This document shows positions 9,686 to 14,514 of a DNA stretch of 14,514 bases, in pieces; within the stretch, counting starts at the first letter, position 1; every line of letters begins with the position of its first letter. Source of the stretch: a virus. Lineage: Duplodnaviria; Heunggongvirae; Uroviricota; Caudoviricetes. The stretch is from the IMG/VR virus record IMGVR_UViG_2724678985_000014. One strand, given 5' to 3'. Made by a program: the position numbers and the translations under genes. The notes under the pieces were generated by a model that worked only from the letters and a program-made list of their open reading frames with translations, was not told the origin of the DNA and searched no databases.

Positions 9686-10000
9686 TTAGCATTTTTTTGA
9701 CCGCGCGTTTCCGGACGTATTCTGTTCTCCTGTCCCTTTATATCGTCGGAATACCCGCCGCTCTTCAAATCCCATTCCCAACTCAGAATGTAGTCGGTTG
9801 ACCGCTTGTTTTATTTCGGTCAGGTTCACCGGTGAAACCGGAGTCCGGCGCGCCTTACGCAAACACTCTGCTCGTTTCTGTGCCGCCACTTTTCTTTTCT
9901 GGTCATCACTTAGCTGTACCATCACTTTTGCCCATCGTTCAGCTGCTCTCCGGTACAGTCCTTTTTTCTCCAGACATTCTGCCAGGTGATCATGTAGCAT
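9686..10000 (-). CDS. PerC/Pch-family transcriptional regulator (prophage-encoded PerC homolog)
   Basis: 104 aa. N-terminal L.E.LEKKGLYRRAAERWAKVM matches the PerC-family signature as I remember it (LE..GLWRRAA.RW). EHEC Pch proteins are about this length and prophage-borne (recollection). ATG at 10000 has GGAGG 6 nt upstream (rc of 10007-10011). Confidence 0.65.
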   Translation of the reverse strand: MLHDHLAECLEKKGLYRRAAERWAKVMVQLSDDQKRKVAAQKRAECLRKARRTPVSPVNLTEIKQAVNRLHSELGMGFEERRVFRRYKGTGEQNTSGNARSKKC

Positions 10001-10932: not shown

Positions 10933-11034
10933 TCACCACCAGCGTATCTGACCAATGAAATAACCGGAAGCCATAATCACAAACACCAGCCAGATAAGGA
11001 TGAACTTCCAGGTGGATAATTTTTCAGCCATCAT
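10933..11034 (-). CDS. Hypothetical 33-aa single-pass membrane peptide immediately upstream of, and coupled to, Rz
   Basis: ATGATG at 11034-11029 preceded by GGGAG (6-nt spacer). Encodes MMAEKLSTWKFILIWLVFVIMASGYFIGQIRWW with a ~20-residue hydrophobic core. Its TGA stop (10935-10933) is 1 nt from the Rz ATG (TGG TGG TGA A ATG). The longer ORF-track form (start 11151) would run through a hairpin and has no SD. Confidence 0.45.
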   Translation of the reverse strand: MMAEKLSTWKFILIWLVFVIMASGYFIGQIRWW

Positions 11035-11228
11035 TCGAATCTCCCGAATCAGTTTGCTAAAATCAAACACACTTTCTCCTTTGACTTTTCCGGAGTCAGG
11101 AAACACAAAACCCCACTTGCGGCCAACAAACGGGGTTTTACTTTTATTCACTTAGTTTTTGCCAGTTCGCAGGATTTCGTGTTATCCGCCCGTGTGAGCA
11201 AACCGCATTTTTCAGCAAAATATTCTGC

Positions 11229-11762
11229 TTATCTGTCAATTCCCCAGCACGCCAGCGCGCTCTCCTGGTCACGCCGTGAGACCTGACCGTAGCAGTTGTT
11301 TGAGCGAATACGGCAGTCTCTGCCACCGTCCTTAATCCACCAGCGAATCGCCTCGCATGCTCCCCTGCGGTCACCAGCATTAATCCGTCTGTAAAACGTC
11401 GACGGGAAACACTTACCGGGGCCAATGTTGTACGGACAGAATGACGCAATCCCCGCTTTCTGGGGTTCGGTCAGTGGCACTCTGATGTTTTTCTCCACCC
11501 ATGCCAGCGCCTTATCACGTTCAATGGCGTTAACCTGGTCGCATTTTTCCTTCGACAGCTTCATGCCAGGAATCACAGGCTTACCATCCACCATGATGGC
11601 ACCTCGGCAGATGGTCCAGATACCCGCACCATCACGGTATGCCGTGGTGTGGTTACCTTCCTTTTCATCCAGAAACTGGTCGAGAATGTCAGGCGCAGGC
11701 GCACCAGCGGCAATCAGCGCCAGAACGGCAGCCGACAGGCCGTATTTGATTTTGGTGTTCAT
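11229..11762 (-). CDS. R: Endolysin, GH24 (T4-lysozyme-like) family, with an Ala/Gly-rich N-terminal hydrophobic segment (candidate SAR or signal sequence)
   Basis: 177 aa. Catalytic-triad spacing E35-D44-T50 (EGNHTTAYRDGAGIWT) as in T4 lysozyme E11/D20/T26 and phage 21 R. Residues 4-24 (KIKYGLSAAVLALIAAGAPAP) are weakly hydrophobic and Ala/Gly-rich. Lies in the lysis cassette between holin and Rz. Confidence 0.9.
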   Translation of the reverse strand: MNTKIKYGLSAAVLALIAAGAPAPDILDQFLDEKEGNHTTAYRDGAGIWTICRGAIMVDGKPVIPGMKLSKEKCDQVNAIERDKALAWVEKNIRVPLTEPQKAGIASFCPYNIGPGKCFPSTFYRRINAGDRRGACEAIRWWIKDGGRDCRIRSNNCYGQVSRRDQESALACWGIDR

Positions 11763-11804
11763 GGATATTTATCAGGATTTATCGGCAACAGATAACGAGC
11801 CAGC

Positions 11805-12227
11805 TTATATACGTCCTTTAAGATAAGTCAGTCCTGGATGAAACCAGTAAGCCGGCACTTTTTTAAAGGGCGGGTTGTCAAACTCACGAAGAAGAGCCTC
11901 CCGCACAACTGCATCCTTGTCCGCACCACTGGCCAGCGCTTCAATCTCAGCAGCTATCTGCAGATATCCCATGCAACGACCAATGCACTTCATCAGCCCC
12001 TGCTTTTTATTGTTCTTCAGGTAATCAATGGCAAATTCAATGAGCACCTCACTATGCTGGTGCGATGGCGGTGTTACTTTTCCATTTTCTGAGATGGTTA
12101 TTTTCCCAGCATCACCGGATACAACAAAGGATGGCCGGTTACACTCCCATTCCAGCTCACTGAAATTATCATTATGAATACTGAAACACTCTGAGAGATT
12201 TCTGCTCATCGCGGCGTTTTTTTTCAT
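11805..12227 (-). CDS. Hypothetical protein encoded between holin and endolysin (start uncertain)
   Basis: 140-aa ORF with no TM segment or signal peptide and four Cys. The first ATG (12227) is followed directly by A8 (plus T8 at 12217-12224) and has no SD. Overlaps the upstream 49-aa ORF by 56 nt. E. coli Qin prophage has ydfR at the equivalent position (recollection), but I cannot confirm homology. Confidence 0.45.
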   Translation of the reverse strand: MKKNAAMSRNLSECFSIHNDNFSELEWECNRPSFVVSGDAGKITISENGKVTPPSHQHSEVLIEFAIDYLKNNKKQGLMKCIGRCMGYLQIAAEIEALASGADKDAVVREALLREFDNPPFKKVPAYWFHPGLTYLKGRI

Positions 12228-12321
12228 CTTCAGAAGGCATCAGCGTCGACAGTTTTTTATTCAGTTCAGCAATTTCATTTTCCAGACGACTGAAGCGCTG
12301 ATTCATTTCTTCATGGTTCAT
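12172..12321 (-). CDS. Hypothetical 49-aa charged helical peptide, translationally coupled to the holin stop
   Basis: ATG at 12321-12319 lies 4 nt after the holin TAG (GGA GAT TAG GTG ATG), with GGGGAG 8 nt upstream inside the holin 3' end. Encodes MNHEEMNQRFSRLENEIAELNKKLSTLMPSEDEKKRRDEQKSLRVFQYS. Below the ORF-track size cut-off; found by manual translation. Confidence 0.35.
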   Translation of the reverse strand: MNHEEMNQRFSRLENEIAELNKKLSTLMPSEDEKKRRDEQKSLRVFQYS

Positions 12322-12324
12322 CAC

Positions 12325-13109: not shown

Positions 13110-13205
13110 AATTTCTTTCCGTTATTGTTGACAATAAGAACTGTTTTCATTTAAAAAACCAGAGCACGAAAGTATCGTTCCTTTATTTTTTCTCCATAGG
13201 TATTA

Positions 13206-13245
13206 CCACCGCCAGCGTCCATTCCTGTCGCTGGCGGTTTTTTTT
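13206..13245 (+). terminator. Strong plus-strand intrinsic terminator (9-10 bp GC-rich stem followed by T8)
   Basis: 13209-13217 ccgccagcg paired with 13229-13237 cgctggcgg (11-nt loop), immediately followed by TTTTTTTT at 13238-13245. Oriented opposite to all neighbouring genes. No T-tract on the minus-strand side. Confidence 0.6.
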
Positions 13246-13265
13246 ATCATGCCGCAGTGTCTGTG

Positions 13266-13465
13266 NNNNNNNNNNNNNNNNNNNNNNNNNNNNNNNNNNN
13301 NNNNNNNNNNNNNNNNNNNNNNNNNNNNNNNNNNNNNNNNNNNNNNNNNNNNNNNNNNNNNNNNNNNNNNNNNNNNNNNNNNNNNNNNNNNNNNNNNNNN
13401 NNNNNNNNNNNNNNNNNNNNNNNNNNNNNNNNNNNNNNNNNNNNNNNNNNNNNNNNNNNNNNNNN
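13266..13465. other. Assembly gap: run of 200 N
   Basis: Read directly from the sequence. Interrupts the 3' end of the esterase-like gene. Because 200 is not a multiple of 3 and the true gap length is unknown, the frame across it cannot be inferred. Confidence 1.
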
Positions 13466-14514
13466 CCGTCTCCGGTCAGGGCAACGCCCTGTGGCAGTGA
13501 AGATACCGGCCAGTAAAACGCCATAACATACTGGTTCGCAGCCAGCGCTCCCGAAACCTTAAAGCGGCAGCGAATCTGCCCCCCTTTCTGTAACAGAGCC
13601 GCACCGTTGCCCGCGGCGTACTCCAGCACCCAGCTGCTTTTACCGGCTTCCTTGGTCAGCTTCACTGCCTTACCTCCGGTTCCCTCCGCATCGCTGACCA
13701 CTTCTGCCCTGCCGCCACTGGCTGACCATCCCTGTACTTTCAGGCTTCCCTCTGACTCGCTGGCAAGGTAAGAGAGCAGTGTTGTGACGCCTGTGGCTTC
13801 TGCACCGGAAGGCGATGACGGGCGCACCTCTGATACTGTCGATGATGCCCCCGCGTTTAGCGCCACTCTTCCCGCATGGCGCAAAATCGCCGTTGCCAGA
13901 CGGTCGGAAATAATCCCACGGCGTGCCCAGGCGCTGAAATGGCTCGCCCTGTCCTGTGACGTCCAGGTGGCTGAGCTGTCACGCCATTTCGAACCGTAAT
14001 ATCCGATACCCGGAATGTCCGGGTCTTCTTCCGGTTTGTTCGTCGGCACATTCACCCCATTCTCATCCGTCATGAACGGTACGAAATGGATATTCTTTTC
14101 CGTTTTGTTTTTGTAGCTGCCGTACACCGTCTGGTACGAGGATTCGTTCTTCTGCTTCCAGAAATACGTCGTGTCCCCGCATATCCAGGGAACACCGTCA
14201 GCAGAGCCACCGACGCACTGACCTGCCATATCCGCCAGGTCTGCACGGAATTTATCAACCTGCGCACCAAACTGTGCTGCGTGATTTGCCGGCGTACCGC
14301 CAAAATCAAATTCCCCCTGCATCCACACCACGGCAAACAGCACATTTTTCGGATTCTTCTTCAGTGCTGCTTTTGTTCGACCGATAAGGTCCTTATACAG
14401 CGGCTTGTCCACACCCCAGCGGGTTGAATTCTCCGAGGCACCACTCGCGTCACTGTCTGTGCCATCCGCCCCGGTGGTGAACGCTGAACCACCACGACAG
14501 CACGGAACCAGCAG
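13466..14514 (-). CDS. Partial NanS-p-like prophage esterase (sialate O-acetylesterase / SASA family); 5' end beyond the window, 3' end lost in the N gap
   Basis: The frame is open from the window edge (14514) to the gap; the ORF-track M at 14412 is a GTG inside a longer frame. Contains VVWMQGEFD, resembling the SASA-family W.QGESD block, then a long Ser/Gly/Ala-rich C-terminal region. Lying upstream of S on the late strand is where Stx and related lambdoid prophages carry nanS-p (recollection). Confidence 0.55.

Follow-up and report, generated by a model that had tools for sequence, protein, structure and literature searches.

A split gene between the pinholin and lysozyme genes of an Escherichia coli O111 prophage is very probably a young pseudogene that arose by loss of 41 bp between direct repeats

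What occupies the space between the holin and the endolysin genes of this prophage? In the window, as the whole analysed stretch of 14,514 nucleotides is called here, a pinholin gene and a lysozyme gene were separated by 562 bp, with everything on the minus strand, and this spacer contained two overlapping open reading frames (ORFs) of 49 and 140 aa together with a run of eight A residues (A8). The first-pass annotation of the sequence had offered three readings, namely two independent overlapping genes, a fusion produced by a +1 frameshift or transcriptional slippage at the A8 run, or a pair of which one member is spurious; its factual description of the gap and of the overlapping ORFs proved correct in every element. 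We consider it very probable that the locus is a young pseudogene of an accessory late gene, made by a 41-bp deletion between direct repeats. The coordinates of the features are given in Table 1.

Table 1. Features of the holin-lysozyme region in the window.
Feature	Position	Strand	Details
Phage-21-type class II holin (pinholin), 71 aa	12325..12540	-	PF04971, E = 8.5e-33; stop codon TAG 12327-12325
Whole split gene (very probable pseudogene)	11805..12321	-	185-aa-type phrog_1085 member with internal 41-bp deletion
49-aa ORF, N-terminal fragment	12172..12321	-	ATG 12321; TAA stop codon 12174-12172
140-aa ORF	11805..12227	-	ATG 12227 directly before A8; stop codon 11807-11805
Spurious 5' extension MKKNAA of the 140-aa ORF	12210..12227	-	+1-frame reading of the parent ...DEKKRR codons
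A8 run	12217..12224	-	In the ancestral frame part of Glu-Lys-Lys (GAA AAA AAA); not the frame-break site
Deletion junction, sole remaining GATGAGCAG copy	12202..12210	-	Alignment and in-silico deletion
C-terminal fragment	11805..12209	-	Parent residues 52-185 (MSRNL...LKGRI and stop), open in the +1 frame
Lysozyme (R21-like endolysin), 177 aa	11229..11762	-	PF00959, E = 5.2e-24; starts at 11762

The upstream neighbour of the split gene is labelled 'class II holin family protein' and the downstream neighbour 'lysozyme' in RefSeq records of identical DNA. The trinucleotide GTG was the whole gap between the holin stop codon and the ATG of the 49-aa ORF. A ribosome-binding site for this ORF (GGAG, 12333-12330) was located inside the 3' end of the holin gene, with an 8-nt spacer before the ATG, in agreement with the holin-coupled start that had been proposed on first reading. 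No Shine-Dalgarno sequence or other ribosome-binding site was found upstream of either candidate start of the 140-aa ORF. The two ORFs overlapped by 56 nt (12227-12172), and the 140-aa ORF was confirmed to lie in the +1 frame relative to the 49-aa ORF.

Relatives of 185 aa, of which P0001 represented the closest cluster, held both pieces in one frame. Codons 1-40 of the 49-aa ORF corresponded to the coiled-coil N-terminus of the parent protein (40/40 identical to P0001), and codons 41-49 (KSLRVFQYS) were out-of-frame read-through up to the TAA codon. The 140-aa ORF was composed of six spurious codons followed by 134 authentic ones; its ATG was a fortuitous out-of-frame reading of parental GAT GAA (ATG A), its family homology started only at Met7, and the C-terminal fragment was about 95% identical to residues 52-185 of P0001. 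In searches against PHROGs, the 49-aa ORF matched phrog_1085 (positions 117-152, E = 6e-7), phrog_36381 (positions 1-41, E = 6e-22) and, end to end, the 49-position family phrog_15975, and the 140-aa ORF matched positions 160-296 of the 296 positions of phrog_1085 (E = 1.8e-90). The motifs of the phrog_1085 C-terminal domain, GRCMGxLQxAAEIE ... NPPFK ... PGxxYLK, were present in the alignments. The two-ORF arrangement is not due to chance, as both ORFs are homologous, colinearly and with high significance, to one and the same protein family. The earlier view that the two ORFs belong together was borne out, as they are colinear pieces of phrog_1085, whose intact members are single ORFs. The coiled-coil segment, however, was in the window present in another frame than the C-terminal domain instead of in the same polypeptide, and the locus is therefore read as a disrupted member of phrog_1085, a pseudogene.

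Intact 185-aa genes were found between holin and lysozyme genes in strain T309.Ta3 (WP_289201197.1), in O157:H7 PV15-279 (WP_001015158.1) and in Stx2a phages, and the same gene order was common to the related loci L002, L003, L004, L007, L010 and L011. In the window, too, the split gene lies between the class II holin and lysozyme genes, and its start is coupled to the end of the holin gene. The window copy shared its slot and its start 3 nt past the holin stop codon with the two named proteins and P0001, but lacked the 41 bp between two GATGAGCAG repeats and was thereby split into the 49-aa and 140-aa ORFs. When aligned with the intact allele of T309.Ta3, the window DNA was 98% identical and contained a single 41-bp gap, flanked by GATGAGCAG. 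Intact alleles carried two copies of this 9-bp direct repeat, at gene positions 112 and 153, 41 bp apart. In-silico removal of one repeat and the intervening sequence from the intact allele L002 or L007 gave 517 nt, which is the length of the window gene, and the alleles so deleted differed from it by 11 (L002) and 34 (L007) mismatches, all of them substitutions. As 41 cannot be divided by three, the loss of codons 41-53 is accompanied by a shift of the reading frame. The event was a deletion and not an insertion, because the uninterrupted form was both the majority form (748 vs 72 genomes) and the state found in distant family members. Deletion between short direct repeats is a classical signature of replication slippage, and the loss of the 41 bp was likely caused by replication slippage or by microhomology-mediated deletion.

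A 39-mer spanning the junction was detected in 72 of the 5,426 complete E. coli genomes (about 1.3%), with all copies identical; the undeleted segment was found in 748 genomes. Carriers of the deletion were mostly O111:H8/NM, including reference strain 11128, and over 4.2 kb the window matched these O111 prophages with 100% identity. In PGAP/RefSeq records, the exact span 12321-11805 is annotated as one 'frameshifted' hypothetical protein (NZ_CP027548, NC_013364), and the locus is already recorded as a frameshifted pseudogene in public annotation.

The proposed course of events would start from an intact accessory late gene that is common between pinholin and endolysin in E. coli lambdoid and Stx-type prophages. 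In the O111 prophage, the 41 bp between the two GATGAGCAG repeats would have been lost, together with codons 41-53 and the reading frame. The first 40 codons would then run into nine out-of-frame codons and a stop codon, giving the 49-aa ORF, and the remaining 134 codons would have stayed open in the +1 frame and gained a fortuitous ATG before the Lys-Lys codons of the A8 run, giving the 140-aa ORF. With its start signals intact, the 49-aa ORF probably continues to be translated during expression of the late operon; the C-terminal fragment, because it has no ribosome-binding site, is probably silent. The C-terminal ORF contained no stop codons or other lesions, and it would still be open because the deletion is young, as judged from the identity of the 72 carriers at the 39-nt junction probe. 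Residual use of this ORF is possible.

Functional recoding was weighed against this scenario. A fusion at the A8 run had been suggested in the first-pass annotation; it would arise if RNA polymerase slipped on the run or ribosomes shifted there by +1, and would be a 171-172-aa protein made in a set ratio to the peptide. The C-terminal frame is fully open, and by simple arithmetic the loss of one A (A7) or the gain of two (A10) in the mRNA gives an uninterrupted fusion of 171 or 172 aa (...SEDEK(K)NAAMSRNL...). In addition, low but measurable slippage on runs of eight A has been reported for some systems (PMC1088944). We nevertheless regard recoding as very improbable, as the frame break is not the A run but the 41-bp deletion downstream of it, whose junction repeat (12210-12202) begins 6 nt past the run. 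The identical run (GATGAAAAAAAACGC) was found in the intact alleles L002, L007 and L008 and in the IS-disrupted L006, where it is read in frame as Asp-Glu-Lys-Lys-Arg and needs no shift. It was replaced by GCAAACAAA in L003 and L012 (context GATGCAAACAAACGC) and by GAAAACAAA in L010 (context GATGAAAACAAACGC), and the segment was absent from L011. Such interruption or absence in related prophages was what the first-pass annotation had itself named as speaking against its proposal. Since the run occurs in unbroken alleles and varies elsewhere, it is neither conserved nor tied to the two-ORF organisation, and it is therefore not a sequence evolved for recoding; the A8 tract appears to be an ordinary allelic spelling of Glu-Lys-Lys that holds no recoding signal. 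A slippery motif conserved across homologues with a two-ORF layout was likewise not found, the homologues being single ORFs, and the frame transition came from the deletion rather than from a slippery motif.

Other features of the locus also argue against recoding. No +1 frameshift stimulator was seen after the run, be it a stop codon, a rare codon or an upstream Shine-Dalgarno-like element. In the fusion, the second predicted helix would lack residues 41-51, and residues 35-37 would be changed from KRR to NAA. The low frequency of the deletion allele and the lack of junction divergence give no indication of selection, and nothing in the sequences suggests selection for a slippage fusion. Among the 72 deletion-carrying genomes, no A7-restored allele was found; 71 had A8, and A9 occurred in one alternative assembly of strain 2013C-3277, the other assembly of which has A8. 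Selection against slippery runs has been reported to be evident at 9 nt, not at 8, in many bacterial genomes (PMC1088944). The locus resembles the slippage-rescued poly-A genes described by Baranov et al. (2005; PMC1088944), such as IS-element ORF fusions and cases of 'savior' slippage, in that the A run lies just upstream of the break and a one-nucleotide change in run length would restore the frame. Unlike in those genes, the run here is of 8 nt and not of 9 or more, lacks conservation and also occurs in alleles that are unbroken; the frame is disrupted by a 41-bp deletion distinct from the run, and restored or selected variants were not seen.

A related and similarly improbable idea is that the deleted allele is active, either through the 49-aa fragment acting on intact paralogues in O111 strains or through A8-to-A7 slippage yielding a low dose of the 171-aa protein. 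Low-level slippage of this kind could produce a small amount of the near-full-length fusion. If the allele were active, the 49-aa coiled-coil fragment might serve, for example, as a dominant-negative partner of paralogues in other lambdoid prophages, or the internally shortened 171-aa product might be at work; the prophage would then modulate the role of the family in late infection, with a possible effect on the timing of lysis and Stx release.

Even less credible is the view that two independent functional genes overlap here, one for a holin-coupled 49-aa peptide and the other for a 140-aa protein with an initiation of its own. Neither ORF is interrupted, the start signals of the peptide are good, and the full-length coverage of the peptide by phrog_15975 would suit a self-standing gene. 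Short PHROG and database entries, however, also include frameshift truncations (e.g., P0151 and P0156), both ORFs are colinear pieces of a family whose intact members are single ORFs, and a ribosome-binding site is missing at either candidate start of the long ORF. Moreover, the last nine residues of the peptide and the first six of the 140-aa ORF are out-of-frame by-products of the deletion, so that the earlier suggestion of independent overlapping genes was not upheld. Homopolymer runs are error-prone and one alternative assembly of 2013C-3277 had A9, but a sequencing or assembly artefact creating a false frameshift is effectively refuted, since the lesion is a 41-bp deletion without change in homopolymer length and the same sequence recurred in 72 complete genomes, which were assembled independently and came from many laboratories and platforms.

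The preferred reading, a deletion-made pseudogene, concerns one allele, and other damaged copies of the gene were observed. The second prophage of E. coli O111:H8 99.1145 contained an undeleted paralogous copy with A8 that was interrupted by IS1203 (L006:1412-3091); this genome also holds a 41-bp-deleted copy, which makes two independent inactivations in one genome. In the protein database, the short proteins P0156, P0151, P0129 and P0145 (e.g., MNTEEINYRISRLRNEIAELNKKLSAVVLSEDEKNAAMTGISRSVKMGK) looked like products of single-A losses in otherwise undeleted alleles, with ...SEDEKNAAM... as an example of a short product of the A-run frameshift type. These short proteins could instead reflect homopolymer sequencing errors; if the single-A losses are genuine, the A run is a mutational hot spot in the family. 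The IS1203 disruption and the A-run frameshift products indicate that the gene has been lost repeatedly in resident prophages.

The parent family was examined through its intact members. The intact gene relies on a GGAG in the 3' end of the holin gene, as the split copy does. Its product combines a helical hairpin or coiled coil at the N-terminus with a conserved C-terminal domain of about 110 aa. For this domain, pairwise comparison of intact alleles gave dN/dS values of 0.14-0.28 (about 0.2), which points to a genuine coding gene under purifying selection. When an intact relative was used as query against 5.8 billion proteins, 166 matches were obtained, many of them of 185 aa, and every source name given was E. 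coli. A profile search of 1.84 billion representatives retrieved only 39 clusters, which marks the family as narrow, and no informative distant relatives were found in this exhaustive search. AlphaFold2 predicted the C-terminal domain with confidence (pLDDT 82, pTM 0.75), as a three-strand meander with three helices and an ordered tail, for which no recognisable fold relatives were found. Scans of both ORFs and of intact relatives against Pfam, NCBIfam and PADLOC gave no match to the C-terminal domain, and for the 49-aa peptide yielded merely sub-threshold coiled-coil noise. The literature contained no paper on the C-terminal domain family, with data existing only for K-12 YdfR (DUF1327). DUF1327 goes unmentioned in a comparative study of Stx-phage lysis cassettes, and the passages of it that were consulted describe no gene between holin and endolysin.

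A relationship to the DUF1327/YdfR-like proteins had also been raised, and it held for the position of the gene only. YdfR of the K-12 Qin cryptic prophage occupies the same slot (essQ-ydfR-rrrQ), with its start 4 nt past the holin gene, and longer members of the family do carry DUF1327. The 287-296-aa proteins named 'YdfR family' contain the coiled coil and C-terminal domain seen in the window, downstream of a DUF1327 domain of their own, and in Pfam scans this domain was found only in the 287-329-aa relatives. K-12 YdfR aligned only to residues 1-74 of these long forms, which is the DUF1327 part, and BLASTP of K-12 YdfR against the 185-aa P0001 gave no alignment. No match to DUF1327 (PF07041) above the Pfam gathering score was obtained with the 49-aa ORF or the intact P0001, and the 140-aa ORF had no Pfam match. 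By these comparisons, the window gene is not a DUF1327 member. Residues 1-72 of YdfR have been reported to bind the catalytic half of RNase E (PMC13232886); a counterpart of these residues is absent from the window gene, and the interaction therefore cannot be transferred to it.

The family was mosaic, with forms of 185, 213, 287-296 and 329 aa that share the coiled coil and the C-terminal domain and differ in linker inserts and in the optional N-terminal DUF1327 domain. In Stx2a phage Stx2_14040 (L012:1204-1689), the same coiled-coil N-terminus, through ...FAAFDDYCRKVMSRNLAECF, was joined to an unrelated C-terminus of about 100 aa; by comparison, other alleles (L003:1504-2145, L004:917-1906) additionally have a DUF1327 domain at the N-terminus or a linker insert of 28 aa. 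BLAST breakpoints clustered at query positions 115-123 and 172-174, adjoining the GATGAGCAG repeat. On this pattern, the slot between holin and endolysin appears to be a hot spot of module swapping.

The C-terminal domain was left unannotated in ExPEC genomes, and further pseudogenisation was considered as an explanation for this but rejected, as translation gave an intact 296-aa ORF. This uninterrupted ORF was found in E. coli O15:H18 ST69 (NZ_CP102488; L011:1516-2406), where the PGAP annotation stops after the first 336 nt, which it labels 'YdfR family protein, incomplete, missing C-terminus', and omits the C-terminal domain; the under-annotation of this locus is an annotation artefact. Such under-annotation of the domain by PGAP is probably widespread. 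Of the 568 records with a best match 90-95% identical, most showed 'none' under the match, to go by the examples listed.

The locus is best regarded as ordinary decay of a resident O111 prophage, with a frameshift that RefSeq has already flagged. The A8 tract and the overlapping ORFs make no case for pursuit as a recoding site, and annotation of the 49-aa and 140-aa ORFs as two separate genes is to be avoided. Hundreds of E. coli prophages, Stx phages among them, carry a member of the parent family in a fixed, pinholin-coupled slot, and the family consists of swappable modules. For the parent gene, the lysis-timing modulator or moron raised in the first-pass annotation is a candidate role; it is this family, and not the broken copy, that would be a reasonable target for the study of lysis curves and Stx release.

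Several neighbouring features of the window were recorded in addition. The gene for a SASA-family esterase (nanS-p-like; 13183-14412) is interrupted on the minus strand by a masked run of N at about 13260-13480, with X residues in its translation; the run is a property of the supplied sequence and has no biological meaning. Comparison of the full window with Rfam produced no hits. A small ORF on the minus strand (10933-11070), which lies immediately upstream of Rz and overlaps its start, encodes a C-terminal hydrophobic segment (...STWKFILIWLVFVIMASGYFIGQIRWW) and matches the 45-aa family phrog_6632 (E = 1.7e-29). This ORF is unannotated in the O111 11128 record and may encode a small membrane protein of the lysis cassette. 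A minus-strand gene at 9686-10000, located between this cassette and the terminase genes, encodes a 104-aa PerC-family transcriptional activator (phrog_994 and further transcriptional-activator PHROGs), whose size and family presumably fit the Pch-type regulators of EHEC prophages.
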